From the NCBI GenBank assembly GCA_963666485.2, contig CAXXUO010000001.1, positions 1,312,001-1,376,000 of the forward strand: a DNA stretch of 64,000 nucleotides. The letters are read 5' to 3'. Below the pieces are notes generated by a model. It saw only the letters and a list, made by a program, of their open reading frames with translations, ran no database searches and was not told where the DNA came from. The DNA comes from Syntrophorhabdaceae bacterium (GTDB lineage Bacteria; Desulfobacterota; Syntrophorhabdia; Syntrophorhabdales; Syntrophorhabdaceae). Position numbers and translations under genes: made by a program. Of the stretch, positions 17,971 to 48,471 are shown in pieces; within the stretch, counting starts at the first letter, position 1, and every line of letters begins with the position of its first letter.

Positions 17971-19140
17971 TTAAACGTATATGATGTTGATGAGCTTCCC
18001 CATCGTCTTGAGCTTTTCCGCGAGAAGCTTGACGATGACCTCCCGGGGATATATTCCCATCTGCCTGAATACGATATGCTCATGCCCCGTGTTCGCCGCA
18101 GTGCCGACGAGAAAATTGATCGTGTCGGCCGCATGGAAGAACCTGTACAGGTCGGATACCGATGAATCGGGCTCGAGCTTTTCAGGCGGCTCGCCAAGGA
18201 TATTATAAACCTGGTTGAGCGTTATCGCACCCTCGGTCGCGTAATCGATGCCTTTTATATAATAGGAAGGCGGCTTGTGGTAGGCATTGGACATTGTCTT
18301 TATCTCGATGGGCCGGCCGAGGTTGCGGGCGACGAGCTCCGAGGTTGAAGACCCGCAGACTATCCTCATGCCCCGCATAGCGACAAATTCCTTTACCACC
18401 TTCTCGTCACTTGTTTTTCTTGCCGGGGGACCGGTGAGGACATTGAGGACCTGCGCCTCGCGGCACAGAAGCAGGCTGCAGCTCGTGTCATCGCCGTAGG
18501 TCGTGCCCGAGATGTCGCGCACCTTGCCGACGACCTTTTTCGGGATGTCCCGTACTCGTGTCCCCTGCGCGAGGAGGCCGTTGATGAAGTCGCATGCGCC
18601 CTCGATCCCCCATCCCATGCGGTATTGCTGGCCGAGGCCCGCCTGGCTCACGCCATCGCTGACCATCACGATCCCGTCGCCGTACTCGAGCATGCAGTTG
18701 ACCTCACCGACCATCTCGAGCCCCATCGGGAAGACCCTCTGTTTCGGAAGGTATGCCGCCAGCCGGTTGTTGATGAGGACAGGCGGAGGTATCTCGTACG
18801 ACATGACCGTAGCGTGGCCGCTGCCGAGAACACGGCTGACGGAAAACGCGGAAAAAGGAATGTCGGTCGTGCGGGCGGCGTGCATGGTGTCGATGATCTT
18901 CTGGCATGCCTCGCGAAGGGTGAACCCCACGCGCAAGAGCTCCATGAGCCGGGACGCGCACATGACCGCCGCGACGTGCGCCTTGATACCGGTGCCGATA
19001 CCGTCGGCGAGGACGGTCGTCGTCGCCTCGGCGGTCCGCTCGGTTATGATGTAGTCGCCGCATATCCCGCCCGGCTTTTTCGCCGCCTGCGAATTTACGG
19101 TCTCGACATATTTTCTCGGTTCATCGGGGGTTGGCTTCAT
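17971..19140 (-). CDS. SpoIIE/PP2C-type Ser/Thr phosphatase, hydrogenase-associated
   Basis: CGD, LADGIGTG, SDGV, GDDTS motifs plus C-terminal extension. Confidence 0.85.
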   Translation of the reverse strand: MKPTPDEPRKYVETVNSQAAKKPGGICGDYIITERTAEATTTVLADGIGTGIKAHVAAVMCASRLMELLRVGFTLREACQKIIDTMHAARTTDIPFSAFSVSRVLGSGHATVMSYEIPPPVLINNRLAAYLPKQRVFPMGLEMVGEVNCMLEYGDGIVMVSDGVSQAGLGQQYRMGWGIEGACDFINGLLAQGTRVRDIPKKVVGKVRDISGTTYGDDTSCSLLLCREAQVLNVLTGPPARKTSDEKVVKEFVAMRGMRIVCGSSTSELVARNLGRPIEIKTMSNAYHKPPSYYIKGIDYATEGAITLNQVYNILGEPPEKLEPDSSVSDLYRFFHAADTINFLVGTAANTGHEHIVFRQMGIYPREVIVKLLAEKLKTMGKLINIIYV

Positions 19141-20860
19141 CTGACTCGCTCAGGCTCATAAGCTTTCTGACAAGTTCCTCGCCGCGCGCGGTGCTCTCCC
19201 CGAGGAACTGCGCTATCTTTTGTGCCATCTTGATCTGGTGCTCGAGGAGTTCATGCGCCTGCTCGACCGTCTGGGACCGTATCTCTTTCAATTTCTTTTC
19301 GTGTTCCTGCTGGCTCGTTATGTTGATAAAGATGCCGACGATCTGTTTCTCGTCCTTGAGCATGTAGAGAAGTTCCCTGCACAGGAGATTGTAGGGACGG
19401 TGGAAAATGGTGATATCGAGGTTCTGTTCCTGGCCGGATATCAGCTTCTCGAAGGGCGCCGGGTCCATAAGATACGATATGTGGCGACCCAGTATCACGT
19501 CGCTGCACGAGAAGAATTTTTTGAACGCCGGGTTCATCCCGATAATATTGAGCTCGTCGTCGAGCATGATGACGCCGTTCGGCGTTGTGCCGAATATCTG
19601 GTCAGTGCGCCTCTCTGCCAGTCTGCGCATGTACGGTATGCACATCTCCGGCTCAGCCATGCCGAGTGCGACGGCTATCGCCTTTTCGCGGCAACTGTCA
19701 TAGCCGCACGCCCCGCAGTTGAGCTGTTGCTCGGGGTCCTGTTTGCCTGTCTGGGCAAGGATCTTCTGGATCGCTTCTTCCGTTACGTCCTTCGGCGACG
19801 GGCCGCTTTCCGCCGTACCGAAGGCTGCCGTGAAAAGACCGCCGTCCGCCGCCTCGGGCGGGGGCGTCCCCGGCGCTATCGTGCTGTTGTATTCGATAAT
19901 ATCGCGCCTGCGCTCGAAGAGGTTCTTTCCGGGCTCGATGCCGGGCCCGTTGATGCATCCCTGGCTGCAGAAAAGAGGCTCGATGATGGCGTGGTCGGGG
20001 CCTTCCCCGATCCCGTTCAACAATTCACGGACACCCTGGATACTGTCGACCTTGAGGAGCTTGAGGTTGAGTCCGTCGTCGTCGAGTCCGGCTGTCTTGA
20101 TGAGCCCTCCCGGGAGCGGGTACAACTGCGCCTCATGGACCGGTTTCTCGTCAAAATTGCTTTCTTCGCACATGGACAGGTCGATCCCTTTCTGGGCAAA
20201 CCACTGGTTCAACTCCCTGAAAGTGAGAACGCAGTCGACAATGCCTTTGACCTCCTGCCGTGTCAGTTCCGATTTTTTTGCCACGCACGGCCCGATAAAG
20301 AGGACCTTGATCTCCTGTCCGAGCTTTTCCTTGAGGAGGCGTGCGTGTGCCGCCATCGGGGAGACGAGGGGCAACAGGTGCCCCGTCAGTTCGGGCTGGT
20401 ATTTCTCGATATAGTTGACGAGGGCCGGGCATGCTGTTGCGATATGCGGGCCGCCCTCGGCCATTTCCTCGGCCAGGCGCCGGGATTCAAGGGATATCTG
20501 GTAGGCGCCGTGGGACGTTTGTCCCACATAGCGGATGCCGAGCGCACGCAGGGCGGACGGAAGCCGCGACAGCTGCCATGAGTTGAAGACGGCGGCAAAG
20601 GATGGCGCTATACTTGCCGCCACGAAATGCCCTTCGTCGATGAGGCGCTTGGCAACATCGATGTCGTTGCGGAACGTCTTTGCCTGCTGCGGACATTCGC
20701 GAATGCAGGTGCCGCAGGCAATGCAGCGCTTCTCGTCAACATACGCCTGCCCTTTCTGCATGCGGATCGCCTTCACCGGGCATGCCCGAAGGCACCTGTA
20801 GCAGTCCCGGCACCGTGCTGTCAGCGTGTAAACGATCTGTGGTTTGGATATGTCAAACAT
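19121..20860 (-). CDS. Sensory-type [FeFe]-hydrogenase (HydS-like, group C) with FeS and PAS domains
   Basis: 2x[4Fe-4S] N-terminus; ATACP, GPCVAKKSE, FCSQGCING; LNCGACGYDSC; C-terminal PAS-like domain and coiled coil. Confidence 0.85.
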   Translation of the reverse strand: MFDISKPQIVYTLTARCRDCYRCLRACPVKAIRMQKGQAYVDEKRCIACGTCIRECPQQAKTFRNDIDVAKRLIDEGHFVAASIAPSFAAVFNSWQLSRLPSALRALGIRYVGQTSHGAYQISLESRRLAEEMAEGGPHIATACPALVNYIEKYQPELTGHLLPLVSPMAAHARLLKEKLGQEIKVLFIGPCVAKKSELTRQEVKGIVDCVLTFRELNQWFAQKGIDLSMCEESNFDEKPVHEAQLYPLPGGLIKTAGLDDDGLNLKLLKVDSIQGVRELLNGIGEGPDHAIIEPLFCSQGCINGPGIEPGKNLFERRRDIIEYNSTIAPGTPPPEAADGGLFTAAFGTAESGPSPKDVTEEAIQKILAQTGKQDPEQQLNCGACGYDSCREKAIAVALGMAEPEMCIPYMRRLAERRTDQIFGTTPNGVIMLDDELNIIGMNPAFKKFFSCSDVILGRHISYLMDPAPFEKLISGQEQNLDITIFHRPYNLLCRELLYMLKDEKQIVGIFINITSQQEHEKKLKEIRSQTVEQAHELLEHQIKMAQKIAQFLGESTARGEELVRKLMSLSESDEANPR

Positions 20861-20882
20861 CTGTGGTACCTCTTACGGGGGT

Positions 20883-22874
20883 TCAAACCTCGCGTTTGAT
20901 GGCCTCGATGGCCATGTCCGTGGTGCAGCCTTCGATGATCCTGCTGCCTACCTTGATCGTCGGCCCCTTGTCGCACTTCTCAAAACAGAAGGATGCCTTA
21001 ACATTCACCCTGTCGTCAAGCCCTTTGACATTGATGTGCTCGAGTATGTCGCGCAGCAGCTTTTGTGAACCTTTGAGGAAACAGCTGGTCCCGAAGCAGA
21101 CGCTGATATCGAGGCTCTTCTCGACCCCGGAACTGATGTTCAGGTCTTCGTCGATGATGCGCTTGCGCGAGGAATAGCTCGTGTGGAGAAGCTTGTGTGC
21201 CTTTGCGCTGCCTATGTCGCCGAGCTCTTTTTCGTAGAGTTCGGTAATGTAGGGGTTATCTTGCGATTTGTGGAGCTCCAGCATCCGGTCGCTCTCGTAG
21301 AGTCCCTTCGTGCGCTGGCGTTTAACGGCCGGGTCGGTGAAGACCGGTTGCCCGGCACCGCCGATACACCCGCCCGGGCATGCCATGACCTCGACGAGGT
21401 CATAATGGACTTTCCCCGTCTGTATGTCTTCGAGGACCTTCCGGGCGTTGCCGAGCCCGCTGACGATCGCGAGTGTGAATTCATTGCCTCCTACCGCAAG
21501 CTTTGCCTCGCGTATCCCGTTGTCCCCGCGCACTGACATGAATTCGTACGCATCGTGCTTCTGCCCGGTCAGCTTTTCGCTCGCATACCGCAGGACGGCT
21601 TCGCTCACGCCGCCCGAGTTGCCGAATATGACCCCGGCCCCTGTTTTGAAACCGAAGGGGAGGTGGTATGATTCGGGGCCGAGGTCCTTGAAATGCAGGC
21701 CGGCTTCTTCGATCATGCGCCCGAACTCCTGGGTCGTCAGGACGTGATCGACGTCGCGCACGCCGTCGCTTTCGAATTCGGGCCTCTTCGCCTCGAATTT
21801 TTTCGCCGTGCACGGCATGATAGATACGACGACAATGTCTTCGCGCTTCACCTTCAGTTCGCTGGCGAGCATCTCTTTTGCCAGCGCCCCGAACATCTGC
21901 TGGGGAGAGCGGCAGCTGGAAAGATGGTTGACGAATTCGGGGTAATACTGTTCTACGAACTTGACCCATGCCGGGCAGCAGGAAGTGAACTGCGGGATCC
22001 TGTCGCCTGCTGTCACGCGCTTGATGAACTCGTTGCTTTCTTCGAGGACGGTAAGGTCGGCCGTGAACGACGTGTCGTATATCTTGTCAAAGCCGATGGC
22101 CCTCAGGGCCGCAGCGATCTGTCCCGTCGTGAGCGTCCCCGGCGGGAGCCCGAACATCTCGCCGATGGCGACCCGCACAGCCGGTGCGACCTGGGCGACG
22201 ACGACCTTTCCCGGGTCATGGATGGCCTTCCATACCTCATCCACCTCGGATTTGGGCGTGAGCGCACCGGTGGGGCAGATGCGGGCACACTGGCCGCAGT
22301 TCACGCACTCGACCTGGTCGAGGGCCTTGCCGAAGGACGGGATGACGACTGTCTGGGCGCCCCTGTAGGCGAAGTCGATGGCGCCGACGGACTGTACCTC
22401 GGAGCAGATGCGAACGCAGTCGCCGCACAGCACGCATTTATTGGGGTCGCGTACGATAGACGGCGATGATTCGTCGGCCGGCATTTCCTTGAGCTGGTTT
22501 TTGAACCGGACCTTCGTTATGCCGAGCCGTTTGGCGAGCGCCTGCAGCTGGCACGTCGTGCTTTTCTGGCACGTCGGGCAGTTCTGGCTGTGGTTTGCGA
22601 GTAACAGTTCGACAATGATCTTGCGCATCCTGCGTATCTCGCCGGTGTTGGTGCTGACCTTCATCTCCGCAGACGGCGGGGTGGAACATGCCGGAACGAG
22701 GCCCATGCCGTCGACCTGCACCATGCACAGGCGGCAGGCGCCGTAGACGCTGAGCTCCGAATGGTAGCAGAACGTGGGAAGGTCTATCCGCGCCTTCCTG
22801 ATCAGCTCGAGGAGGTTCTGTTCGTTTTCGATGGGGATCTCTTTATTATCTATATAGACGAAAGTGCCGGTCAT
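20883..22874 (-). CDS. hydA: [FeFe]-hydrogenase catalytic subunit (group A3) with C-terminal thioredoxin-like [2Fe-2S] domain
   Basis: FTSCCPAW, MPCTAKKFE, EVMACPGGCIGG; C-terminal CFGTSC...FCFEKC. Confidence 0.93.
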   Translation of the reverse strand: MTGTFVYIDNKEIPIENEQNLLELIRKARIDLPTFCYHSELSVYGACRLCMVQVDGMGLVPACSTPPSAEMKVSTNTGEIRRMRKIIVELLLANHSQNCPTCQKSTTCQLQALAKRLGITKVRFKNQLKEMPADESSPSIVRDPNKCVLCGDCVRICSEVQSVGAIDFAYRGAQTVVIPSFGKALDQVECVNCGQCARICPTGALTPKSEVDEVWKAIHDPGKVVVAQVAPAVRVAIGEMFGLPPGTLTTGQIAAALRAIGFDKIYDTSFTADLTVLEESNEFIKRVTAGDRIPQFTSCCPAWVKFVEQYYPEFVNHLSSCRSPQQMFGALAKEMLASELKVKREDIVVVSIMPCTAKKFEAKRPEFESDGVRDVDHVLTTQEFGRMIEEAGLHFKDLGPESYHLPFGFKTGAGVIFGNSGGVSEAVLRYASEKLTGQKHDAYEFMSVRGDNGIREAKLAVGGNEFTLAIVSGLGNARKVLEDIQTGKVHYDLVEVMACPGGCIGGAGQPVFTDPAVKRQRTKGLYESDRMLELHKSQDNPYITELYEKELGDIGSAKAHKLLHTSYSSRKRIIDEDLNISSGVEKSLDISVCFGTSCFLKGSQKLLRDILEHINVKGLDDRVNVKASFCFEKCDKGPTIKVGSRIIEGCTTDMAIEAIKREV

Positions 22875-22876
22875 GG

Positions 22877-24769
22877 TCATTCTCCTTTGATCGCCTTGAA
22901 TTTGCATGCTTCAACGCAGATGTAGCATTTTCTGCAGGTCTTGTCGTCGATGCGGTGCGGTTTGCCTTTTTCGCCCGAGATGGCGCCTACCGGGCATTTC
23001 GCGGCGCACAGCGTACAGCCCTTGCAGAGTTCCTCATCGACGACGAGTCTCACGAGTGCCTTGCACTTGCCCGTCGGGCACCTCTTGTCCCGGACGTGGG
23101 CGATGTATTCATCACGGAAATGCTTCATCGTGGAGAGGACGGGGTTCGGTGCGGTCTTGCCGAGGCCGCAGAGAGAACCTTTCTGGACGGCGCCGGCAAG
23201 GTCCTCGAGCAGGTCGAGTGTCCCCATCGTCGCGCGCCCCTCGATGATATCGTCGAGCAGTGCCAGCATCTGCTTGGTACCCTCGCGGCACAGGACGCAT
23301 TTCCCGCACGACTCGTGCTGGGTGAACTGCATGAAGAAACGCGCCACGCTGACCATGCAGGTGTTCTTGTTCATGACGACGAGCCCGCCCGAGCCGACCA
23401 TTGCCCCGACAGTCTTCAGGGAGTCGAAATCGATCGGCAGGTCGAGGTGGTCGCGCGTCAGGCATCCGCCCGAAGGGCCGCCTATCTGGACGGCCTTGAA
23501 GCCGTCGCTCACCGCCTTGCCGCTGTCGGACGTCATGCCGCCGGCGACGCCGTAGATGATCTCGCGCAGGGTCGCGCCGAAGGGCATCTCGATAAGGCCC
23601 GAATTGGCGACATGGCCTGTCAGCGCGAACGTCTTGGTCCCCGGGGAGTCCTTCGTCCCGACCTTCCGGTATCCTTCCGGGCCGATCTTCAGGACCAGGG
23701 GCACCTGGGAGAGTGTCTCGACGTTATTTATTATCGTCGGTTTCCCCCACAGGCCGCTGACCGACGGAAAAGGCGGTTTCGGTGACGGCATCCCGCGCTT
23801 GCCTTCGATCGACGCGATGAGCGCCGTTTCTTCGCCGCAGACAAAGGCGCCGGCGCCTTCCATGATGTTCAGGTTGAAGGAGTGCGTGGACCCGAAGAGG
23901 TTCTTTCCAAGAAGCCCGACGCGGTACGCGTCGTCGATCGCCTTGCGGAGCCTCTTGACAGCGAGCGGATATTCGGCCCGCACGTATATGTACCCCTCGT
24001 TGGCCTCGATGGCGCGGGCCGCTATGGCCATGCCCTCTATAACGCTGTGGGGGTTGCCTTCCATAATGCCCATGTCCATGAACGCCCCGGGGTCACCCTC
24101 GTCGCCGTTGCATATCACATATTTCTTCTCGTTCACCTCGCGCCGGGCGACGTCCCATTTTCTGCCCGCGGGGAAACCTCCGCCGCCGCGCCCGCGCAAG
24201 CCTGATGCGAAGATAAGCTCGCAGATCTCTTCGGATGTCATTTCGAGGTATGCACGGACAGCCTGCTGGTACCCGCCGGCAGCTATATATTCGTTGATGT
24301 CCTCGGGGTCGATGGCCCCGCAGTTCTCAAGCACGAACCGGTGCTGCCTGCGGTAAAAGGGGATATCGTCCTTCGTGCGGCACATCCTCTGACTGTCGGG
24401 CTCGACATAGAGGAGCCTCTCGACGACGTCGCCGCCCTTGACGGTCTTCTCGACTATTTCGCCGACGTCGAGCGGTTTTACCCGGGTATAGAAGATACCT
24501 TCCGGCAGTATGGTGACGAGCGGCCCTATCTGGCAGAACCCCTGGCACCCCGTCCGGGAGACGAAAATGCCCTCTTCTTCCTTTTTCAGCTCGACGATCG
24601 CGTTAAGGCCGCTTTCCTCGATGGCCTTCACAAACGCCTCGTATACCTTGAGAGACCCGTTGACAAGGCATCCCGTTCCGGCACACACGAGGACCCTGCG
24701 CGTGGCAGCCTGTGACCTGACGGCAAAGTCCGTCCCTATTTTATTAAGCCCCGTGAGCATCAGATTCAT
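22877..24769 (-). CDS. hydB: HydB/NuoF-like flavoprotein, bifurcating-type signature
   Basis: GDEGDPGAFMD, GAGAFVCGEET, GGPSGG; N-terminal Cys domain; C-terminal 2x[4Fe-4S]. Confidence 0.92.
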   Translation of the reverse strand: MNLMLTGLNKIGTDFAVRSQAATRRVLVCAGTGCLVNGSLKVYEAFVKAIEESGLNAIVELKKEEEGIFVSRTGCQGFCQIGPLVTILPEGIFYTRVKPLDVGEIVEKTVKGGDVVERLLYVEPDSQRMCRTKDDIPFYRRQHRFVLENCGAIDPEDINEYIAAGGYQQAVRAYLEMTSEEICELIFASGLRGRGGGGFPAGRKWDVARREVNEKKYVICNGDEGDPGAFMDMGIMEGNPHSVIEGMAIAARAIEANEGYIYVRAEYPLAVKRLRKAIDDAYRVGLLGKNLFGSTHSFNLNIMEGAGAFVCGEETALIASIEGKRGMPSPKPPFPSVSGLWGKPTIINNVETLSQVPLVLKIGPEGYRKVGTKDSPGTKTFALTGHVANSGLIEMPFGATLREIIYGVAGGMTSDSGKAVSDGFKAVQIGGPSGGCLTRDHLDLPIDFDSLKTVGAMVGSGGLVVMNKNTCMVSVARFFMQFTQHESCGKCVLCREGTKQMLALLDDIIEGRATMGTLDLLEDLAGAVQKGSLCGLGKTAPNPVLSTMKHFRDEYIAHVRDKRCPTGKCKALVRLVVDEELCKGCTLCAAKCPVGAISGEKGKPHRIDDKTCRKCYICVEACKFKAIKGE

Positions 24770-25935: not shown

Positions 25936-25989
25936 ATCAGGCCTCCATCATATTAGATAAATATCTATCTATAAATTAATATCGATAAA

Positions 25990-26018
25990 AATATATCGAA
26001 TAAGAGGGAGGGAGTCAA
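25990..26018 (-). promoter_or_regulatory. Sigma70-type promoter of the rex-hydCBA-hydS operon
   Basis: TTGACT-17 nt-TATATT on the minus strand. Confidence 0.6.
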
Positions 26019-26099
26019 GAAAAAAAACGGCGTACGGCTAACGGAAAAGGCGAAAGGAAAAGGAAAAGGCGAAAGGCTAAAGGCTAAAGGCGAAATGGC

Positions 26100-26487: not shown

Positions 26488-26520
26488 AACAGCTAAAGCT
26501 AAAGGCGTGCATTCTTTTCG

Positions 26521-27267: not shown

Positions 27268-27332
27268 CCTCCACGCCCTATCGACATTTTTCACAGAGGA
27301 ATGATACCCCAAACTTTCGGGAAAAAGCATGA

Positions 27333-38952: not shown

Positions 38953-38967
38953 GGAGGAAGGTTAACC

Positions 38968-41900
38968 ATGGAGGTATCTCGCGCTCACATATTGGTATGT
39001 GCAGGAGCTGCATGCGTCTCGTCCGGCTGCCGCCAGATCAGGGATGCTGTTGTCAATAAAATCGTCGAGCAGGGTTTGCAGAATGAGATCAAGGTCATCG
39101 AGACAGGCTGTATCGGTTCATGTGATCTGGGTCCGCTCGCACTGGTCTATCCCGAAGGCGTCCTCTACCAGAAGCTGAAACCAGAGGATGCGGAAGAGAT
39201 CGTTACCGAGCACCTGCTCAAGGGACGGATCGTCGACCGCCTGTTGTATAAGGAAGCGACGACGGCAAAGGCGATCCCTTCAATGAAAGAGATCGACTTC
39301 TTCAAGAACCAGATCAAGATCGTCTTGCGCAATTGCGGCGTCATCAACCCGATGAACATCGAGGAATACATTGCGCGGGACGGCTACCTGGCCCTCGGCA
39401 AGGCCCTTACCTCGATGACGAGAGAAGATGTTGTCGAGGAGGTCTTGAAATCAGGGCTTCGCGGCCGCGGCGGCGGCGGGTTCCCGACCGGCCTCAAGTG
39501 GAAATTTGCCCAGCAGTCGCCGGGCGACGTGAAATACGTTGTCTGCAACGCCGATGAAGGCGACCCCGGGGCTTTCATGGACCGCAGCGTTCTCGAAGGC
39601 GACCCGCATAGCGTCATCGAGGCGATGGCAATAGCCGCGTACGCGATAGGGGCGCAGCAGGGCTACGTGTATGTCAGGGCCGAGTATCCGCTTGCGATCG
39701 ACCGCCTGAACTGGGCGATCGGGCAGGCCAGGGAATACAAGTTCCTCGGCAAGAACATCCTGGAGACGGGGTTCAATTTCGACCTCGAGATCCGTATCGG
39801 CGCCGGCGCATTCGTCTGCGGCGAAGAGACGGCCCTCATGATATCGATCGAAGGCAAGCGCGGCGAGCCAAGGCCACGGCCGCCTTTCCCGGTCGTCAAA
39901 GGCCTCTTCAACGCCCCGACACTCCTCAACAACGTCGAAACATACGCCAACATAGCGGCGATCATCAATAACGGTGCCGCCTGGTACGCCCAGTACGGGA
40001 CCGAAAAGAGCAAGGGAACGAAGGTCTTCGCCCTTGCCGGCGCGGTCAACAACACGGGCCTCGTGGAAGTCCCCATGGGCACACCGCTCGGCGACATCGT
40101 CTTCAACATAGGCGGCGGCATCAAGGACGGCAAGAAATATAAAGCCGCACAGTTAGGCGGGCCGTCGGGGGGATGTATTCCCATACAGCACCTGAACGTA
40201 CCGGTCGATTATGAATCGGTCGCGGAGCTTGGTGCGATCGTCGGTTCCGGCGGTCTCATCGTGGCCGACGAAGATACATGTATGGTCGACTTTGCCCGGT
40301 TCTTCCTCGACTTCATCCAGCACGAGTCCTGCGGCAAGTGCCCGCCGTGCCGTATCGGTACGAAAAGGATGCTCGAGATCTTAAAGAGGATCACCCATGG
40401 TGAAGGAAAGCCGACCGACATAGATGACCTCGTCGAGCTTGCGACAAGGATCAAGGATGCAGCGCTCTGCGGCCTCGGCCAGACGGCGCCGAACCCCATT
40501 CTGTCCACACTCAAATTCTTCAAAGATGAATACCTCGAACACATCGAGGACAAGCATTGCCGCGCAGGCGTCTGCAGTGCCCTGTTTGACGCGCCATGCC
40601 AGAACGCATGCCCCGCCGACCAGAATGCGTGGGGCTATGTCACCCTGATAGGCGAAGGCAAAATGAAAGAGGCCATCGCGGTCATCAAGGAAGCGAACCC
40701 GTTCCCGGCCACATTGGGCAGGGTCTGCGTGCACCCGTGCGAAGCGAAATGCCGCCGGGCCCAGATAGACGCACCGGTGTCGATATGTTCACTGAAGCGC
40801 TATGCGGCGGATGTGGACATGGCCTCGTACCCGCGCTACAAACCGCAGGTAGAGCAGCCGAAGGGCAAGAAGGTCGCCGTTATCGGCGCAGGCCCGGCCG
40901 GTCTCGCGGGCGCGTACTTCCTCGCCCTGAAGGGCTACGGGGTGACCGTCTTCGAATCCCTGCCGGTCGCAGGCGGAATGCTGGCAGTCGGTATCCCCGA
41001 TTACCGGCTCCCGCGCGATGTTCTCAACAACGAGATAAAGTCCATCACGGACCTTGGCATCGAGATCAAGTACAACACCGTGTTTGGTAAAGATATAACG
41101 AGCGAGAAGCTTTTCAAGGATGGCTACAGCGCGGTCCTTATCGCAACAGGGGCGCACAAGGGACAGAAACTCGGTGTCCCGGGTGAGGAGACGAAAGGCG
41201 TCCTCGACGGCGTGACCTTCTTGAGGGATGTCAATCTCGGTAATACCATGAAGGTAGAAGGAAAGGTTGTCGTGATAGGCGGCGGAAACGTGGCGATCGA
41301 TGCCGCGCGCGCTGCCTTGAGGCTCGGCGCGGCTGACGTGTCGATCCTGTACAGGCGCGAGAGATCGGACATGCCTGCCTACATCGAGGAGATCGACGAG
41401 GCGGAAGTTGAAGGCATCAAGATCCATACGCTGGTGGCCCCGAAATCAGTCGTGGAAAAAGACGGCAAAGTGGCAGGGATCTCCTGCATGCGGATGCTGC
41501 TCGGCAAGTTCGATTCGGGCGGCAGGCGCAGACCGGAACCAATCACCGGGTCCGACTTTGTTGTCGATGCCGATATGATCATAGCGGCTATCGGCCAGGT
41601 CCCCGACCTGTCATGGATGAACGGTGACGGGGTGAAGGCGGACAAAGCCGGAACAGTCGACGTTAATATGAAGACCCTGGCCACGGCAGCCGAAGGTATA
41701 TTCGCGGCAGGCGACAATGTCAGGGGTCCCGCAACGGTCGTCGAGGCGGTCGGTGACGGCAAGAATGCCGCCATGGCTATCGATGAGTTCCTGGGCGGCG
41801 ACGGTATAGCACCGAACGCATTCCGTGATGAACTCGTCCAGATGACGGTATCGTACGATGAGGCGGAATACCAGAAAGAGATCGGCAGGATGAAAATGCC

Positions 41901-42021
41901 TCACCTGCCGGTATCGAAACGCGACAAGAACTTCAACGAGGTCGTCCTTGGCTATGATAACAAAGCGGCCGTTGAGGAAGCGAAACGGTGTCTCCACTGC
42001 TATGTGAGGACAAGCGAGTAA
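38968..42021 (+). CDS. HydB/NuoF fused to a GltD/NfnB-like FAD/NAD(P)H oxidoreductase, 1017 aa
   Basis: ADEGDPGAFMD, GAGAFVCGEET, GGPSGG, then PCQNACP, GRVCVHPCE, IGAGPAG, IGGGNVAID, YRR, AAGD. Confidence 0.9.
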   Translation: MEVSRAHILVCAGAACVSSGCRQIRDAVVNKIVEQGLQNEIKVIETGCIGSCDLGPLALVYPEGVLYQKLKPEDAEEIVTEHLLKGRIVDRLLYKEATTAKAIPSMKEIDFFKNQIKIVLRNCGVINPMNIEEYIARDGYLALGKALTSMTREDVVEEVLKSGLRGRGGGGFPTGLKWKFAQQSPGDVKYVVCNADEGDPGAFMDRSVLEGDPHSVIEAMAIAAYAIGAQQGYVYVRAEYPLAIDRLNWAIGQAREYKFLGKNILETGFNFDLEIRIGAGAFVCGEETALMISIEGKRGEPRPRPPFPVVKGLFNAPTLLNNVETYANIAAIINNGAAWYAQYGTEKSKGTKVFALAGAVNNTGLVEVPMGTPLGDIVFNIGGGIKDGKKYKAAQLGGPSGGCIPIQHLNVPVDYESVAELGAIVGSGGLIVADEDTCMVDFARFFLDFIQHESCGKCPPCRIGTKRMLEILKRITHGEGKPTDIDDLVELATRIKDAALCGLGQTAPNPILSTLKFFKDEYLEHIEDKHCRAGVCSALFDAPCQNACPADQNAWGYVTLIGEGKMKEAIAVIKEANPFPATLGRVCVHPCEAKCRRAQIDAPVSICSLKRYAADVDMASYPRYKPQVEQPKGKKVAVIGAGPAGLAGAYFLALKGYGVTVFESLPVAGGMLAVGIPDYRLPRDVLNNEIKSITDLGIEIKYNTVFGKDITSEKLFKDGYSAVLIATGAHKGQKLGVPGEETKGVLDGVTFLRDVNLGNTMKVEGKVVVIGGGNVAIDAARAALRLGAADVSILYRRERSDMPAYIEEIDEAEVEGIKIHTLVAPKSVVEKDGKVAGISCMRMLLGKFDSGGRRRPEPITGSDFVVDADMIIAAIGQVPDLSWMNGDGVKADKAGTVDVNMKTLATAAEGIFAAGDNVRGPATVVEAVGDGKNAAMAIDEFLGGDGIAPNAFRDELVQMTVSYDEAEYQKEIGRMKMPHLPVSKRDKNFNEVVLGYDNKAAVEEAKRCLHCYVRTSE

Positions 42022-42048
42022 ACAGGATAAATTAAGGAGCGTGCCTAT

Positions 42049-43773
42049 ATGAAGATCAGCCTTACTATTGACGGGCGTCCGCTGGAGGTCGAAGAGGGGA
42101 TAAGCATTCTTGACGCGGCCAAATCGGCAAATGTCCATATACCGACGCTATGCTACCTGCCCGAGGTCCAGGCGATCGGGGCGTGCAGGGTTTGCCTTGT
42201 CGAGATCGAGGGGAACCGTACGCTTCAGGCGGCCTGTGTATCACCGGTCGCCAAGGGCCAGGTAATATATACGAACACAGACAGGGTCCGCAAGGCGCGG
42301 CGTTTTGCCGTCGAAATGCTCCTGTCCAACCACCCCTTCGACTGCTTGAGCTGTGCAAAGAACCTCCATTGCGACCTGCAGTCGCTTGCCTATGAACTCG
42401 GCATCCGTGAGATCAGGTTCACCGGGGAACAATCAACCGGCAGGATCGATGAATCCTCCCCGTCCATACGGCGTGACCAGAATAAATGCATCCTGTGCAG
42501 GCGGTGTGTGACCGTGTGCCAGGATATCCAGTCCGTAACCGCCCTTTTCATGCAGGGCAGGGGCTTTGAGACCCGGGTCGAACCCGCATTTGACCGCGAC
42601 ATCAACGATGTCGCATGCACGAATTGCGGCCAGTGCTCGATCGTCTGCCCCGTTGGTGCAATTACGGAAAAAGAATATATCGATGACGTGTTCGCGGCCA
42701 TTTACGATCCCACGAAATTTGTCGTCATCCAGGATGCGCCCGCGGTGAGGGCGGCCCTCGGCGAGGAATTCGGGTATCCCCCGGGCACCCTCGTCACGGG
42801 AAAGATGCTCGCAGCCGCCCGGAAGCTCGGTTTTGACCGGGTTTTCGATACCAATTTTGCCGCCGACCTGACCATCCTCGAAGAAGGGACCGAATTGTTG
42901 ACCCGGGTCAAGGAAGGCGGGACACTCCCCATGATAACGAGCTGCAGTCCCGGCTGGATCAAGTTCATTGAGCATTTCTACCCGGAACTGCTCGACCATC
43001 TCTCCACGTGCAAATCACCGCACATGATGCTGGGCGCACTGACAAAGACGTATTTCGCTAAAAAGGCGGGCGTCGACCCGAAGGATATCGTGGTCGTATC
43101 CGTCATGCCGTGTACGGCGAAGAAGTTCGAGTGCAACCGGCCGGAGATGTATGACAGCGGGTATAAGGATGTCGATTACGTCCTGACAACGCGCGAATTT
43201 GCGAAAATGATCAAACAGGCCGGAATTGATTTCGAGAACCTTCCCGATGAAATGTATGATGACCCTATGGGTGAATATACCGGCGCAGCCACGATCTTCG
43301 GCGCAACCGGCGGGGTTATGGAAGCGGCATTGAGGACTGCCTACGAGGTAGCGACCGGCCGTGTCCTTGAAAATGTTGAATTTACGGCGGTGCGCGGGCT
43401 TGAAGGGATAAAAGAGGCGACAGTGCCCGTCGAAGGCCTGGGAGATGTGAGGGTTGCCGTGTCGCACGGTCTTGGCAATGCCCGCAAACTGCTCGACAGG
43501 ATAAAGGCAGGCGAGGCCAACTACCACTTCATCGAAGTCATGGCCTGTCCCGGCGGGTGCGTGGGCGGCGGCGGCCAGCCGATCCCGGTCACGAACGAGA
43601 TCAGGATCTTGAGGGCACAGGCCCTGTACAACGAGGACGCACACCTGAAATACAGGAAGTCCCACGAGAACCCGTCGATCACGAAGATCTACGAAGAATT
43701 CCTGGGTGCGCCGCTGGGTGAGAAATCACATCACCTGCTGCATACCCACTATACACCGCGAAACAAAATCTAG
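42049..43773 (+). CDS. hydA: [FeFe]-hydrogenase catalytic subunit (group A)
   Basis: ITSCSPGW, MPCTAKKFE, EVMACPGGCVGG. Confidence 0.93.
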   Translation: MKISLTIDGRPLEVEEGISILDAAKSANVHIPTLCYLPEVQAIGACRVCLVEIEGNRTLQAACVSPVAKGQVIYTNTDRVRKARRFAVEMLLSNHPFDCLSCAKNLHCDLQSLAYELGIREIRFTGEQSTGRIDESSPSIRRDQNKCILCRRCVTVCQDIQSVTALFMQGRGFETRVEPAFDRDINDVACTNCGQCSIVCPVGAITEKEYIDDVFAAIYDPTKFVVIQDAPAVRAALGEEFGYPPGTLVTGKMLAAARKLGFDRVFDTNFAADLTILEEGTELLTRVKEGGTLPMITSCSPGWIKFIEHFYPELLDHLSTCKSPHMMLGALTKTYFAKKAGVDPKDIVVVSVMPCTAKKFECNRPEMYDSGYKDVDYVLTTREFAKMIKQAGIDFENLPDEMYDDPMGEYTGAATIFGATGGVMEAALRTAYEVATGRVLENVEFTAVRGLEGIKEATVPVEGLGDVRVAVSHGLGNARKLLDRIKAGEANYHFIEVMACPGGCVGGGGQPIPVTNEIRILRAQALYNEDAHLKYRKSHENPSITKIYEEFLGAPLGEKSHHLLHTHYTPRNKI

Positions 43774-43786
43774 AGCGGCCTTATAA

Positions 43787-43826
43787 TCCCTGCGCTCCCG
43801 GCGGTCCATGCCGGAAGCGCAGGGAT
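43787..43826. terminator. Hairpin between convergent genes
   Basis: ATCCCTGCGCTCCCGGC..GCCGGAAGCGCAGGGAT, no long U tract. Confidence 0.5.
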
Positions 43827-43875
43827 GCTGTACCTGTACACTACCGGATCTCCACTCGCTGCGTTTCGATCTTCG

Positions 43876-44211
43876 CTACTTGATCATGACAAGGAGCATT
43901 TTATAACGCGTGACCGCTTTCAGGGCATGAGGCTTATGTGCCGGCATAATGATCATCTCCCCTTCCTTGACGGTGTGCGGCTTGCCGTCTATCGTTATCG
44001 TCGCCTCGCCTTCAAGGATAAGGACGGCTGCATCGAACGGGGCGGTATGCTCGCTCAGGCCCTCGCCCTCATCGAACGCGAATACCGTCATCGTGCTGGC
44101 AGGTTTCCGGACTATCTCACGGCTCACGACAGAATGGTCCTGGTATGCAGCCAGGTCTTTCAGGCAAAACGGTCGGGTTTCCCTGTCGAGTGCGATAAAG
44201 TTTTCGCTCAT
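43876..44211 (-). CDS. Cupin domain protein
   Basis: FAFDEGEGLSEHTAPFDA, MPAHKPHAL; GGAGG RBS before 44211. Confidence 0.87.
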   Translation of the reverse strand: MSENFIALDRETRPFCLKDLAAYQDHSVVSREIVRKPASTMTVFAFDEGEGLSEHTAPFDAAVLILEGEATITIDGKPHTVKEGEMIIMPAHKPHALKAVTRYKMLLVMIK

Positions 44212-44323
44212 GGAATCCTCCTTCTTTATATTTTTAACATACAACAGAAAATTCCGTATGTTTTTGACCCAGGTCAAATTTTGTGGATTGTTTCGGTGCT
44301 AAGGTTTAAAAGAATGGAAGGGC

Positions 44324-45757
44324 ATGATGACTGATTTCAGGACTGAAAGGGATGCGCTGGGCGAAATGAATGTCCCCGCCGATGCCTACTGGGGCATCCA
44401 TACACAGAGGGCCTTGAAGAACTTTGCCGTCTCTTCCTTCCGTGTCCCCGGCGAAATGATCATCGCGCTCGCAGAGGTCAAGCTCGCCTGCGCACGAGCG
44501 AACATGCGCGCGGGGCTTCTCGACACCGGCATCGGTGATGCGATCGCTCAGGCTGCGAAGGAAGTGGCCGGCGGCGCATTAGCCGATCAGTTCATCGTGG
44601 ACGCCTTCCAGGGAGGGGCCGGGACTTCGACCAATATGAATATGAACGAGGTGCTTGCCAACCGGGCCATCGAGCTCACCGGTGGGCAAAAAGGCGATTA
44701 CAGCATCGTCCACCCCCTCGACCATGTCAATCTTTCGCAATCGACCAATGATGTCTATCCGACCGCGCTGAAGGTCGCAGCTGTGAGGCTCGTCATAACG
44801 TTAAGCGAGGGTATCGCCCGGCTGCAGGGATCATTTCAGAATAAGGAAAAGGAATTCGCAGGCATCCTGAAGCTCGGGCGGACCGAGATGCGCGACGCCG
44901 TTCCGATCATGCTGGGACAGGAATTCGGTGCGTACGCCGAGGCATTCGCCCGGGACAGGTGGCGCCTTTTCAAGGTCGAAGAACGCTTACGCCAGGTGAA
45001 TCTCGGCGGGACTGCCGTCGGGACGGGCCTTAACGCGCGACGCGAATATATCGCATACGCCATAGAAGAACTGCAGGATATTACCGGGCTTGGTATCGCG
45101 CGCGCGGAGAACATGATCGACATAACCCAGAACGCCGACGTCTTCGCCGAGGTCTCGGCTCTCATCAAGGCAGCGGCTGTCAACCTCGCCAAGGTGTCTG
45201 CGGACCTGCGCCTTCTTTCCCTGGGGCCCCGCGGCGGCCTCGCGGAGATCAGCCTGCCCGTCCGCCAGGAAGGGTCCTCGATCATGCCCGACAAGGCAAA
45301 TCCTGTCATCAGCGAGATGGCGTCGAGCGTTGCCTTCCAGGTTATGAGCCTCGACCACGCGGTGACCCTTGCGGCATCGTCGGGGCAGCTCGAGCTCAAC
45401 GCCTTCATGCCGCTTATCGCCTTCAACCTTCTCACGGAACTCAAGATCATGATAAATGCCGTGTCCATCTTCCGGACGGAGCTCGTCGACGGGGTGACCG
45501 CGGATGAAGGGCGCTGCAGGAAATGGCTCGAGGACAGCCTGTGCCTCGCCACGGCCCTTGCCCCGTATATCGGGCACGAGGCGGCGGCGGAGATATCGCG
45601 GGTGGCGCGCACCGAGGGTAAGACGATCGGCGAGATCGCTGTTGAAAAAGGGTATTTTTCCGCTGAAGAGATCGGGTCCATATTCAAATCCCGGGAACTG
45701 ACTCGCCCGGGAATAGCGGGATCAAGCAAGGTAAAGAGGCAGGACAACAAAAAATGA
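44324..45757 (+). CDS. aspA: Aspartate ammonia-lyase
   Basis: YWGIHTQRA, QGGAGTSTNMN.NEV, SQSTND, GSSIMPDKANPV. Confidence 0.88.
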   Translation: MMTDFRTERDALGEMNVPADAYWGIHTQRALKNFAVSSFRVPGEMIIALAEVKLACARANMRAGLLDTGIGDAIAQAAKEVAGGALADQFIVDAFQGGAGTSTNMNMNEVLANRAIELTGGQKGDYSIVHPLDHVNLSQSTNDVYPTALKVAAVRLVITLSEGIARLQGSFQNKEKEFAGILKLGRTEMRDAVPIMLGQEFGAYAEAFARDRWRLFKVEERLRQVNLGGTAVGTGLNARREYIAYAIEELQDITGLGIARAENMIDITQNADVFAEVSALIKAAAVNLAKVSADLRLLSLGPRGGLAEISLPVRQEGSSIMPDKANPVISEMASSVAFQVMSLDHAVTLAASSGQLELNAFMPLIAFNLLTELKIMINAVSIFRTELVDGVTADEGRCRKWLEDSLCLATALAPYIGHEAAAEISRVARTEGKTIGEIAVEKGYFSAEEIGSIFKSRELTRPGIAGSSKVKRQDNKK

Positions 45758-46992
45758 CAGACACGCTTAACCAGACACCGCGGGGCAGCCGCCTCCACAT
45801 CGCGATCTTCGGCAGGCGCAACGCCGGTAAGTCAAGCCTTATCAACGCACTGACGAGCCAGGACATTGCGATCGTCTCCGACGTCCCGGGAACCACGACG
45901 GACCCTGTCTACAAATCCATGGAGATCCTGCCGATCGGGCCGGTCGTCATTATCGACACGGCGGGCATCGACGACACCGGCGATCTCGGCAGGCTCAGGA
46001 TAGAAAAGGCGCTCGGCGTCCTGAACAAAACAGACCTCATGCTCCTCGTCGTCGACCCGGTCGCCGGTTACGGGCAATTCGAAGAGGATATCATTGCCCG
46101 TGCGGCCGAGAACAAGGTACCCGTCGTTATCGTTGTGAATAAAATGGACCGGCACCCCGGATACGTTCCGGATGAGGCGTTAAGCCGCGCCGGCCGTCCC
46201 GTGATCATGGTGAGCGCGCTTACCCGTCAGGGCATCGATGATCTCAAGATGGCGATGATCAAAGAGGCCCCGAAGGACTTCATGAACCCGACGATCTTGG
46301 GGGACCTCATAGGCCCCGGTGACACCGTTGTCCTTGTCACCCCGATCGACCTTGCCGCCCCGAAAGGCAGGCTTATCCTCCCGCAGGTCCAGACGATCCG
46401 GGACATACTCGACAACGAGGCCATGGCTTTCGTCGTAAAGGAAAGGGAGCTCAAGGGTGCGCTCGCCGCGCTGAAAGACAAGCCGCGCCTCGTCGTTACG
46501 GATTCCCAGGCCTTCAACAAGGTGGCTGCGGACACACCCAAAGACGTTCCTATGACGTCTTTCTCGATACTCTTCGCGCGCCACAAAGGGAACCTCACCG
46601 CACTCGTAAAAGGCGTCAAAGCAATCGATGATCTCGAGCCGGGAGACAGGGTGCTGATTTCGGAGGCCTGTACCCATCACAGGGTGGAAGATGATATTGG
46701 AACGGTAAAGATACCGCGATGGCTGAATCAGCTTGTCGGGGGCCCGCTCGATTACGCGACGGTGAGCGGCCTTGAATTGCCGCAGGACCTCACGCAGTAC
46801 AAGCTCATCATACATTGCGGGGCATGCATGATAAACCGGAAGGAAATGCTTCACCGGATCATGGTGGCGCAGCACGCCGGGATACCGATCGTGAATTACG
46901 GGGTCCTTATAGCCCACGTCATGGGTATACTCGAAAGGGCACTGAGGCCATTCCCCGAGGTCCGGGAGGTTTTGGAAAATGGCGAAAAATAA
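45754..46992 (+). CDS. hydF: [FeFe]-hydrogenase maturation GTPase HydF
   Basis: GRRNAGKSS, DTAG, NKMD, EACTHH, HCGACM. Confidence 0.95.
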   Translation: MTDTLNQTPRGSRLHIAIFGRRNAGKSSLINALTSQDIAIVSDVPGTTTDPVYKSMEILPIGPVVIIDTAGIDDTGDLGRLRIEKALGVLNKTDLMLLVVDPVAGYGQFEEDIIARAAENKVPVVIVVNKMDRHPGYVPDEALSRAGRPVIMVSALTRQGIDDLKMAMIKEAPKDFMNPTILGDLIGPGDTVVLVTPIDLAAPKGRLILPQVQTIRDILDNEAMAFVVKERELKGALAALKDKPRLVVTDSQAFNKVAADTPKDVPMTSFSILFARHKGNLTALVKGVKAIDDLEPGDRVLISEACTHHRVEDDIGTVKIPRWLNQLVGGPLDYATVSGLELPQDLTQYKLIIHCGACMINRKEMLHRIMVAQHAGIPIVNYGVLIAHVMGILERALRPFPEVREVLENGEK

Positions 46993-47055
46993 GGGCATCG
47001 GGGTTTCTTTACATTTCGCAGAACGCGCAATATACTTAGGTGACGGAGGCCGCAT

Positions 47056-48471
47056 ATGAAGAGAAATGACGAGGTACAGCGGGCCGATTTTATTGATGAA
47101 GCAAAAATATTCCGGACGCTGGAAAAGGCAAAGAACGCTTCGGTTGCCGAGGTGCTCGACATCATAGAAAAAGGACGTGAGGCAAAGGGCCTTGACCCCT
47201 ATGAGACCGCGGTGCTCCTGCACGCCGCGGACGGAGATGTCGAGCATGCCCTCTTTAAGGCGTCCCGTGAGGTCAAGGAAAAGATATACGGGCAGCGCCT
47301 TGTTCTCTTTGCGCCGCTCTATATCAGCAATTACTGCATCAACAATTGTACATATTGCGGGTACAGGCGGCACAACGCAATACCGAGGGAACGCCTTACG
47401 ATGGACGAGATCGAGCGCGAGGTCATCGCCCTCGAGGCCATGGGGCACAAGCGGATCGCCCTGGAAGTCGGTGAGGACCCGAAGAATTGCCCGATCGACT
47501 ATGTCCTCGAGGCCATGAAAAAGATCTATTCCGTCAAAGAATCGACGGGGAGCATCCGGCGCATTAACGTCAACATCGCCGCGACGACGGTCGAGGATTA
47601 TCGCAAGCTCAAAGAGGCGGGGATAGGCACGTACATCCTTTTCCAGGAGACCTACCACCGCGAGACATATAAAAAGAGCCACCCCGCAGGCCCGAAAAAG
47701 GATTATGACTGGCACACGACGGCAATGGACCGTGCGATGCAGGCGGGCATCGACGATGTCGGTTTAGGGGTCCTTTTCGGCCTTTTCGACTACAAATACG
47801 AGGTCCTCGGACTCCTCTACCATTCGCTCCACCTCGAGGAGCGCTTCGGGGTCGGGTGCCACACCATCTCTGTCCCGCGCATGAGGCCGGCCGAAGGGAT
47901 CAATTTCGACACATTCCCATACCTGGTGAACGATCACGATTTCAAGAGGATGGTATCCATCATACGGCTTGCAGTTCCCTACACCGGTATGATACTGTCG
48001 ACACGGGAACCTGCCGGATACCGGGACGAGGTCATAGCGCTCGGCATTTCGCAGATCAGCGCGGGTTCCTGCACGGGTGTCGGCGGCTACCACAAGGACA
48101 TCGAAAAGCCGGACAAGAAAACGTACGGGCAGTTCCAGGTGGAAGACAACCGCACGACCGACGAAATGCTCCTGAGTGTTTGCAAGTCGGGTTACCTTCC
48201 CAGTTTTTGCACGGCATGCTACCGGCAGGGACGGACCGGCGACAGGTTCATGGCCCTCGCAAAGACAGGCGAGATCCAGAATATCTGCCAGCCGAACGCG
48301 ATACTGACCTTTAAGGAATTTGTGGTGGACTACGCATCGCCCGAGACCAAAGCGGCAGGTGAAGAGGTGATACGCATGCATCTCGACAAGATAGCGAACC
48401 CGAAGATGCGCAAGGAGATAGAAAAACGGCTCGCGAAGATCGAGGCCGGGGAGAGGGACCTCTATTTTTGA
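47056..48471 (+). CDS. hydG: [FeFe]-hydrogenase maturation radical SAM enzyme HydG
   Basis: NYCINNCTYCGY; C-terminal SFCTACYR...C auxiliary cluster motif (absent from ThiH). Confidence 0.95.
   Translation: MKRNDEVQRADFIDEAKIFRTLEKAKNASVAEVLDIIEKGREAKGLDPYETAVLLHAADGDVEHALFKASREVKEKIYGQRLVLFAPLYISNYCINNCTYCGYRRHNAIPRERLTMDEIEREVIALEAMGHKRIALEVGEDPKNCPIDYVLEAMKKIYSVKESTGSIRRINVNIAATTVEDYRKLKEAGIGTYILFQETYHRETYKKSHPAGPKKDYDWHTTAMDRAMQAGIDDVGLGVLFGLFDYKYEVLGLLYHSLHLEERFGVGCHTISVPRMRPAEGINFDTFPYLVNDHDFKRMVSIIRLAVPYTGMILSTREPAGYRDEVIALGISQISAGSCTGVGGYHKDIEKPDKKTYGQFQVEDNRTTDEMLLSVCKSGYLPSFCTACYRQGRTGDRFMALAKTGEIQNICQPNAILTFKEFVVDYASPETKAAGEEVIRMHLDKIANPKMRKEIEKRLAKIEAGERDLYF

Follow-up and report, generated by a model that had tools for sequence, protein, structure and literature searches.

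In bifurcating [FeFe]-hydrogenases of the HydABC type, ferredoxin docks at the C-terminal B3/B4 domain of the beta subunit, HydB (PMC12018979). Criteria based on HydB motifs and cluster ligands separate such enzymes from non-bifurcating ones (Losey et al. 2020, PMC7311640), among them Hyd1ABC of S. wolfei, for which 17 to 40 Pa H2 was measured (PMC5626996); PMC5626996 also states, for a single enzyme, that an uncoupled hydrogenase ties H2 to the NADH pool. The BfuABC enzymes of Hydrogenedentota include a sub-type I, described without biochemistry, in which the B3/B4 part of BfuB is replaced by a DPD_II plus an FAD/NAD(P) domain, a non-bifurcating sub-type II, and a sub-type IV with an M3c HydA, Cys in P1 and a PAS sensor; up to five sub-types occur in one genome (Zheng and Huang 2024, PMC11406978). 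Here we compare with these systems a cluster of three HydABC modules in a 64,000-nucleotide stretch of a Syntrophorhabdaceae bacterium genome (assembly GCA_963666485.2, contig CAXXUO010000001.1, positions 1,312,001 to 1,376,000, forward strand; hereafter the window, whose numbering we use). The modules are predicted to differ in electron input, and modules 2 and 3 look co-transcribed, with module 1 apart from them.

Near equilibrium, syntrophs have to shed electrons from NADH as H2 or formate, and the question is how coupled and uncoupled hydrogenases can share a cell without a short circuit. The cluster makes this question testable, as it unites three designs, a 46-bp operator and sensor candidates, and the family has a cultured member. 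The accessible part of PMC7382037 mentions Syntrophorhabdaceae only for formate-coupled amino acid use. Family counts refer to 69 Syntrophorhabdaceae genomes, the source genome included, and phylum counts to 401 genomes; kin genomes are not independent, so family counts reflect inheritance rather than repeated selection. G-numbers denote sampled genomes (G000 being the source genome) and L-numbers loci that hold a HydB-GltD fusion.

Predicted electron inputs of the three modules

A preliminary description of this DNA had recognized three HydABC modules with distinct HydB motif sets, a 2x[4Fe-4S] domain at the C terminus of HydB1 and a GltD-like domain fused to HydB3, with two sensory hydrogenases, Rex, kinase and phosphatase genes and hydFG flanking them. 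The open reading frames (ORFs), domain matches and motif positions agree with that layout, and its premise that HydB motif sets separate bifurcating from non-bifurcating enzymes accords with PMC7311640. The modules comprise the following genes:

20883 to 22907, minus strand: HydA1, catalytic, with a C-terminal thioredoxin-like [2Fe-2S] domain (M3c); P1 is TSCCPAW
22877 to 24769, minus strand: HydB1, a complete bifurcating-type beta subunit by motifs and PMC7311640 criteria (B1-B5 ligands, ferredoxin arm)
24744 to 25253, minus strand: HydC1 (PF01257)
34219 to 34569, plus strand: HydD, thioredoxin-like fold, cysteine-free; 67-99% identity across the family relatives examined
34591 to 35049, plus strand: HydC2
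35046 to 36632, plus strand: HydB2, 528 amino acids, with TFKD201, AYVC280 and GGAAG396
36651 to 38417, plus strand: HydA2
38455 to 38952, plus strand: HydC3
38968 to 42021, plus strand: HydB3-GltD fusion, 1,017 amino acids, with AFMD, AFVC and GGPSG plus Fer4_20 and Pyr_redox_2
42049 to 43773, plus strand: HydA3

All three HydA proteins score above the 765-bit threshold of NCBIfam NF040763 (768, 849 and 921 bits). Pairwise identities are 46-56% among the HydAs (56% for HydA2 and HydA3) and 43-51% among the HydBs, and the three HydB types fall into separate clades in a tree of 41 HydB cores, made by a quick search that gave long-branch warnings; the modules are therefore not recent duplicates, as judged from their protein sequences.

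HydB1 carries AFMD229, AFVC308, GGPSG430 and two CxxCxxCxxxC motifs, which agree with the bifurcating criteria A/E232, M234, F367 and GGPSG (PMC7311640). All B1-B5 ligands of module 1 are present, including those of the 2x[4Fe-4S] ferredoxin arm, together with the [2Fe-2S] ligands of HydC. At the position that we take, from A. mobile, to hold a fifth B2 ligand, module 1 has Ile, and this position varies among homologues. By the criteria of Losey et al. 2020, module 1 is thus of the predicted bifurcating type, and it very probably uses NADH and ferredoxin. HydB2 shows the non-bifurcating set (T/S232, K/S/A234, Y367, no GGPSG) in its TFKD, AYVC and GGAAG motifs, and it retains only the B1 ligands: the B2 ligands are gone, B3/B4 is absent and the B5 cysteines are replaced by S or T. 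Module 2 is thus non-bifurcating by the same criteria and, in all likelihood, oxidizes NADH alone. The motif and ligand sets separate the three modules cleanly and are invariant in the aligned family orthologues. Because published criteria could be applied to residues checked in HydB1, HydB2 and HydB3, we predict three different electron inputs.

The HydB-GltD fusion of module 3

Over its first 540 residues HydB3 matches A. woodii HydB (7q4v_B, E 1e-238), and the HydB motifs and B1, B2, B5 and C1 ligands characteristic of the bifurcating type are all present. The C-terminal 470 residues, with PF14691 at residues 531-619 and PF07992 at 634-931, are closer to the GltD domains of StnC and Nfn-Bfu than to NfnB. 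The B3/B4 ferredoxin-binding domain is absent, with no CxxCxxCxxxC beyond residue 540 in HydB3 or in 66/66 full-length homologues. C536, the last B2 ligand, lies 8 residues before C544, a GltD-cluster cysteine, and the B1, B2 and GltD cysteines are invariant in an alignment of 74 homologous rows (the 66 of 80 loci with an ORF of more than 900 amino acids plus 8 family sequences, with a few possible duplicates). An AlphaFold model built from a 64-row alignment folds HydB3 as one compact chain (pLDDT 90.1, pTM 0.88). Its closest named relatives are 90% identical, one of them labelled uncultured Syntrophorhabdus sp., and a HydB-GltD fusion occurs in 137 of the 401 phylum genomes.

Two marks of a StnC-type domain were found in HydB3. 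One is a YRR motif, which we take to be of the NADPH type; it is seen in alignments of HydB3 with StnC-type domains and is retained in 73 of the 74 rows. The other is K610, at the position of StnC K170, where the bifurcating NfnB/NfnL type has a Glu ligand to the FAD-proximal [4Fe-4S] cluster; this residue is Lys in 68 rows, His in 6 and Glu in none. In StnC as well, Lys stands for the NfnB Glu, and the FAD has been proposed to be non-bifurcating (PMC10482914). The StnC C114 position, not strictly conserved within StnC itself, is A554 in HydB3 and V, A, I or S in homologues. R680 of HydB3 occupies the position of NfnB R201 and StnC R239 (74/74 rows); the bifurcating NfnB/NfnL type has here an Arg that forms a hydrogen bond to FAD N5, and StnC R239 is likewise present without contact to FAD N5. 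Because a StnC-type NADPH/FAD domain with a Lys rather than a Glu ligand has replaced the ferredoxin arm, coupling of NADH with NADPH is indicated for module 3. We infer that its low-potential arm now ends at NADP(H), and we lean somewhat toward NADH plus NADPH as the pair that module 3 couples.

We also observed a cysteine, C607 (at about 40786), three residues before K610; it is Cys in 17 of 74 rows, mostly family members, and might be an alternative cluster ligand.

Pairing of modules 2 and 3 and control of module 1

The modules are embedded in the following operon and signalling features:

17971 to 19140, minus strand: SpoIIE/PP2C-type Ser/Thr phosphatase (PF07228), final gene of the module 1 operon; behind HydS in 9/10 mapped relatives
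19121 to 20860, minus strand: HydS, sensor-type [FeFe] H-domain with FeS and PAS, group C3-like (PF02906, PF04060, weak PAS_8; motifs ATACPAL, GPCVAKKSE and EPLFCSQGCING)
25228 to 25935, minus strand: local Rex paralogue, first gene of the module 1 operon (PF06971 and PF02629)
25954 to 25999: three overlapping 18-bp palindromes, candidate Rex operator (TCGATAA-N4-TTATCGA type, 14-bp period, over the -10/start region)
25990 to 26018, minus strand: sigma-70-like promoter of rex-hydCBA1-hydS-spoIIE (TTGACT-17-TATATT, 10/12 consensus matches)
26521 to 27330: alkD, a later insertion between the two operons
28539 to 30095, plus strand: sigma-54 activator, a later insertion between the operons in four mapped same-genus relatives
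30130 to 30158, plus strand: sigma-70-like promoter of the operon for modules 2 and 3 (TTGACT-17-TATACT), which also aligns in G040 and in four relatives from the same genus
30289 to 34181, plus strand: signalling block of DRTGG gene, anti-sigma-type HATPase kinase, H-domain sensor-type protein, second DRTGG-type gene, PHP phosphatase and HATPase
31120 to 32469, plus strand: the second sensor-type H-domain protein, PAS-less (motif SSACPAV)
44324 to 48471, plus strand: aspA-like lyase, hydF and hydG (maturation)

From the first DRTGG gene to hydA3 (30289 to 43773), all gaps are at most 69 bp. In promoter and terminator scans of 25800 to 45000, which record consensus matches only, the two best sigma-70-like promoters precede rex and the first DRTGG gene, and no terminator-like site was found between genes in 30289 to 43773, where all plus-strand matches lie inside ORFs. 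On this layout, modules 2 and 3 look like one transcript. Across the family, HydB2 and HydB3 co-occur in 52 genomes, adjacent in 47 and on different contigs in the other 5. Outside the family, HydB2 relatives of at least 55% identity in the phylum sample, scored for at most three candidates per genome, have a HydB-GltD fusion no more than about 5 kb away in 5/5 cases. Three operons (L009, 259-8717; L018, 793-9357; L025, 8840-17279) carry both B/C modules, the HydB-GltD and the TFKD-type HydB, with a single HydA, a count that omits L058, where HydB-GltD is split in two ORFs. L013 and G080 have one FdhA between the two B/C modules, broken at the same point as the selenocysteine (Sec) FdhA of the window, and L055 and G238 have a formate dehydrogenase (Fdh)-like subunit after them. 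Against general pairing, a TFKD-type HydB occurs in 11 of 76 non-family fusion loci, many of them truncated. A cysteine-free HydD is also found in G080, G238 and L013, and A. woodii is known to have a HydD without cofactor (PMC6288185). In two Balneolales records (L061, 7966-17117; L069, 3802-14156), HydB-GltD and a TFKD-type HydB stand beside H-domain-like and small NuoG-like genes without a P1 motif.

The sequence around rex, with a promoter specific to module 1 and a conserved operator array, supports control of this module apart from the other two. The array covers the -10 region and is present in 10/10 aligned sequences. With a weight matrix trained without the source genome, its three palindromes rank first to third in that genome, which has no other tandem pair and no array site before modules 2 and 3. 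A 30-base array pattern matches 45 of the 69 family genomes, in 43 of them 1.2-1.6 kb upstream of hydB1; the reversed control pattern gives two matches in all. The array occurs in 44/47 genomes with HydB1 versus 1/22 without it, and since the pattern was derived from these same promoters, its presence there is partly by construction and the weight of the comparison lies in its absence elsewhere. The array of G057 and G058 lies in a short divergent gap common to both operons. The canonical Rex box is TTGTGAA-N4-TTCACAA; the 18-bp geometry of the palindromes resembles it and their sequence differs. A scan of the window for the canonical box gave one match with 3 mismatches, inside hydA2 and at chance level. 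For the inserted activator, two sigma-54 promoter matches were found, at chance level and neither of them before a module. A second Rex, 33% identical to the local one, is encoded elsewhere in the genome.

HydS shows the marks of a group C sensor, a PAS_8 match (E 5e-6) and ATACPAL, in which the P1-adjacent cysteine is lost, and with its neighboring phosphatase it resembles the proposed group C sensors, by analogy (PMC8924675). The second sensor-type protein has SSACPAV and no PAS domain in Pfam. The second DRTGG-type gene was recognized by blastp to relatives and has no Pfam match at 1e-5. Another DRTGG and anti-sigma-type kinase pair lies at C9:354210-355026 of G000, and the 14 kb examined there contain no hydrogenase gene.

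Distribution and inheritance

HydB1 is present in 47/69 family genomes, HydB2 in 57/69 (rows of at least 74% identity, two of them partial) and HydB3 in 53/69 (counted by its GltD half). All three types occur in 40/69 genomes and lie within 30 kb of one another in 24 of these. Among gene-order maps of 10 relatives, the source order, which the preliminary description had suggested seeking in other genomes, is kept in G057, G058, G040 and four genomes of the same genus; in the three numbered here, rex diverges directly from the first DRTGG gene, with neither alkD nor the sigma-54 activator between them. The order is rearranged, module 1 included, in G050 and G051. Modules 2 and 3 have been inherited jointly, and module 1 has been lost or unlinked separately.

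A foreign "island", as the locus had been called, was rejected on GC content (0.568 for the cluster, 0.545 for the genome) and family-wide inheritance; the cluster is inherited within Syntrophorhabdaceae. The hydE gene sits on a separate contig of the source genome. A search of sequencing runs gave four holders, all from a single study and none of them RNA, which has no bearing on expression. An aromatic acid-CoA ligase-like gene (AMP-binding; 16337-17947, minus strand) lies immediately downstream of the module 1 operon, a position kept in five mapped relatives, and a CBS-domain gene (48571-49023, plus strand) adjoins the cluster in most mapped relatives, even after rearrangement. The gap between rex and the sigma-54 activator (26100-27660) holds REP-like palindromic and simple repeats, with 34-nt perfect inverted arms and 28-nt arms around alkD.

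A formate dehydrogenase subunit and other genome loci

One further gene lies outside the cluster proper and is often linked to it in relatives:

7254 to 9953, plus strand: Sec formate dehydrogenase alpha subunit (FdhA) with a HydA-like N-terminus

The 899-residue subunit is read through one TGA; an open frame, the CARLUH position and matches to selA underlie the reading of this codon as Sec. A SECIS-like hairpin after the TGA was rejected (-19.8 kcal/mol, z = -1.1, not significant). This FdhA is the only Fdh-alpha above the cut-off in the source genome and has no adjacent B/C genes. Of the 44 family genomes with both genes, 19 have fdhA at most 16 kb from hydB2, 24 have it at most 30 kb away and 17 have it on another contig; FdhA is also present in 8 of the 10 family genomes that lack all three HydBs. 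FdhA may borrow the B/C modules of the cluster, or an Nfn-linked B/C pair (C1, near 749 kb). In relatives, fdhA often adjoins the hydrogenase cluster and is then followed by a 272-residue ORF.

Elsewhere in the source genome, a 1,142-residue protein (G000 C1:1214783-1218211, minus strand) fuses a StnC-like GltD domain with the Lys motif to a HydA with intact H-cluster motifs and is a candidate monomeric NADPH-linked hydrogenase. The region C1:734088-749815 (minus strand) holds two Nfn-type loci, a 708-residue hydrogenase-like sensor, a BfuCB pair (AFMN/AFVC/GGPSG) and a 750-residue A subunit without H-cluster motifs. One of the Nfn-type genes of the genome was matched with the Glu motif. With Nfn-type genes and a GltD-HydA fusion elsewhere in the genome, simple NADPH-to-H2 conversion seems already covered. 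Rnf was rejected as a ferredoxin source, as PF03116 was not found in this 99%-complete genome.

Proposed mechanism and alternative readings

We propose a two-tier scheme of electron disposal, to which as a whole we give a probability of about 0.5: modules 2 and 3 would form a constitutive, co-transcribed core, module 1 would be a Rex-gated, ferredoxin-linked add-on, and module 2 would be damped post-translationally. The three enzymes would differ in the driving force behind H2. With potentials from Table 1 of PMC9304861, the calculated H2 pressures at equilibrium come to about 3 Pa with NADH, 145 Pa with NADH plus NADPH, 213 Pa with three NADH per ferredoxin via Nfn and 15 kPa with NADH plus ferredoxin. 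Module 2, on NADH alone, would work only at very low H2 (the 3 Pa value, with NADH at -280 mV). Module 3 would keep the gated FMN/FeS core with a low-potential arm that ends in an NADPH/FAD domain instead of ferredoxin; NADH and NADPH, the latter from Nfn, would yield two H2 up to about 145 Pa. Module 1, on NADH and ferredoxin, would reach about 15 kPa. Local Rex would repress it through the palindrome array until NADH accumulates, and HydS/SpoIIE would provide a second input. Damping of module 2 is probably needed because an uncoupled NADH hydrogenase would take back H2 from modules 1 or 3; the sensor/kinase/phosphatase block and the cysteine-free HydD are candidates, and damping after translation is a tentative suggestion, possible rather than probable. 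That modules 2 and 3 form a ferredoxin-free coupling unit appears rather doubtful; here NADH and NADPH confurcation near 100-150 Pa would be tied to an NADH-only arm, HydA and Sec-FdhA would be interchangeable heads, a kinase-controlled HydD would prevent H2 back-cycling, and Rex would add the ferredoxin gear only at NADH overload.

Several observations weigh against the two-tier scheme. Because a single transcript is predicted and the two modules are adjacent in 47 of 52 genomes, transcription cannot choose between modules 2 and 3, and joint operation at intermediate H2 would be expected to cycle H2. The "switchboard" of the preliminary description thus survives in its three predicted inputs and in the separate promoter and operator of module 1, and not as a three-way transcriptional choice. 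Binding of local Rex to the array is likely, with position as the evidence. No solved chain spans both halves of HydB3 in structure comparison, and no assay of a module 3-type enzyme was found in the literature searched. The NADH-only limit rises to about 70 Pa at -320 mV, and the limits shift about 20-fold with the assumed NADH potential. None of the three HydBs is found in 10/69 family genomes; HydB1 and HydB2 co-occur in 45 genomes, at most 30 kb apart in 27 of them and on separate contigs in 18; genus g14 has modules 2 and 3 in 5/7 genomes and module 1 in 0/7. G062 has lost module 1 and the second sensor, and G007 lacks most of the signalling block.

Modules 2 and 3 could instead be a single twin-diaphorase complex, its NADH-only arm and its gated NADH/NADPH arm served by common heads, HydA or FdhA; it would act as an NADPH-to-NAD+ transhydrogenase venting to H2 or formate. 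The nearness of non-family HydB2 relatives to a fusion (5/5, with the fusion itself in about a third of phylum genomes), the operons with both B/C modules and a single catalytic-type subunit (L009, L018, L025, L013, G080, L055 and G238), and the sole Fdh-alpha, without B/C genes of its own and at most 16 kb from hydB2 in 19/44 genomes, speak for such a complex. We consider it doubtful, however, since each module here has its own HydA, FdhA persists in 8/10 genomes without any of the HydBs, TFKD-type HydBs occur in few non-family fusion loci (11/76), and the paired HydB2 proteins are not one clade in the quick tree.

The chemistry of module 3 may also differ from the NADH and NADPH coupling of our scheme: its FAD could be a second bifurcation site, ferredoxin could dock on the GltD clusters (possibilities raised in PMC11406978), or the enzyme could be an uncoupled NADPH/NADH hydrogenase. 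In favor of such a difference, the Arg near FAD is conserved in every row, NfnB has a ferredoxin site on the same fold (PMC10482914), the C114 position holds Ala, and family members have the Cys before K610. Such chemistry is nonetheless unlikely, as the cluster ligand is Lys or His and never Glu, as in StnC with its proposed non-bifurcating FAD, the operon has no NfnA-like high-potential partner, and the full gating signature is kept, which uncoupled enzymes tend to lose, as HydB2 has. Least probable is that redundant hydrogenases simply gathered around shared maturases with no coordinated switching. Module 1 is indeed rearranged (G050, G051), unlinked or missing in many relatives, the HydBs lie in three clades, and several sub-types per genome are common (PMC11406978), but the operator array is present almost exactly where module 1 is, and modules 2 and 3 adjoin each other in all 47 genomes with both on one contig.

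Comparison with known systems

Every component of the cluster is of a known kind, and earlier papers report the module types as well as their occurrence together in a single genome (PMC7311640, PMC11406978). The locus had been put forward as a candidate undescribed system and is less novel than that; for the cluster, the module 2/3 pairing, the operator array and the linked partnerless Sec-FdhA, no report was found in the literature searched, whose coverage did not extend to the S. aromaticivorans genome and proteome papers. The accessible text of PMC11406978 does not describe three types in one cluster, the operator or Syntrophorhabdaceae, and the family name is absent from 10 of its supplement files; "Syntrophorhabd" is likewise absent from the searched supplement text of PMC11406978, PMC7311640 and PMC9304861 (for the last, one small file). 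The fixed module 2/3 pairing and the separate control of module 1 thus appear undescribed.

Module 1 has all the beta-subunit motifs and cluster ligands of bifurcating HydABC/FeFe-Bfu (A. woodii 7q4v, T. kivui 8a6t, T. maritima 7p5h; PMC9304861), whereas module 3 lacks the B3/B4 ferredoxin domain of those enzymes; in the accessible literature searched, none of them is described beside non-bifurcating and GltD-fused paralogues. Compared through the published criteria, HydB2 resembles the non-bifurcating, NADH-dependent S. wolfei Hyd1ABC and Syntrophus aciditrophicus HydAB (PMC5626996, PMC7311640) in its T/K, Y and non-GGPSG residues and its lack of B2-B5 ligands, but it differs in keeping a B5-type N-terminal domain minus the four cysteines, in following the cysteine-free HydD and in its link to a HydB-GltD module. 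The putative sensor HydS shares with the group C sensors TmHydS, TamHydS, RaHydS and TsHfsB (PMC8924675) a PAS domain, Ala for the cysteine before the P1 ligand and an adjoining phosphatase gene; unlike those sensors, the second sensor-type protein has no PAS domain.

Matched by architecture to the BfuABC of Hydrogenedentota (PMC11406978), module 3 corresponds to sub-type I, module 2 to sub-type II and module 1 to sub-type IV. There, FAD is put forward as a site where a second bifurcation may occur; the Lys ligand of HydB3 instead favors a FAD of the StnC type. If our reading of module 3 is true, NADPH takes the place of ferredoxin as the low-potential partner in an enzyme of the bifurcating type, and about a third of the sampled phylum genomes hold this design. 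The C-terminal half of HydB3 is nearest to the GltD-like NADPH domain of StnABC/Nfn-Bfu (8oh5, 9bov, 9n5u; PMC10482914, PMC12018979), with the same C-terminal RCxxC and the K170 equivalent. In those enzymes, however, GltD is fused to BfuA and NADPH feeds the mid-potential input, with ferredoxin at low potential, whereas in module 3 GltD is fused to the C terminus of HydB, the NADPH domain replaces the ferredoxin arm, and H2 would be the third substrate.

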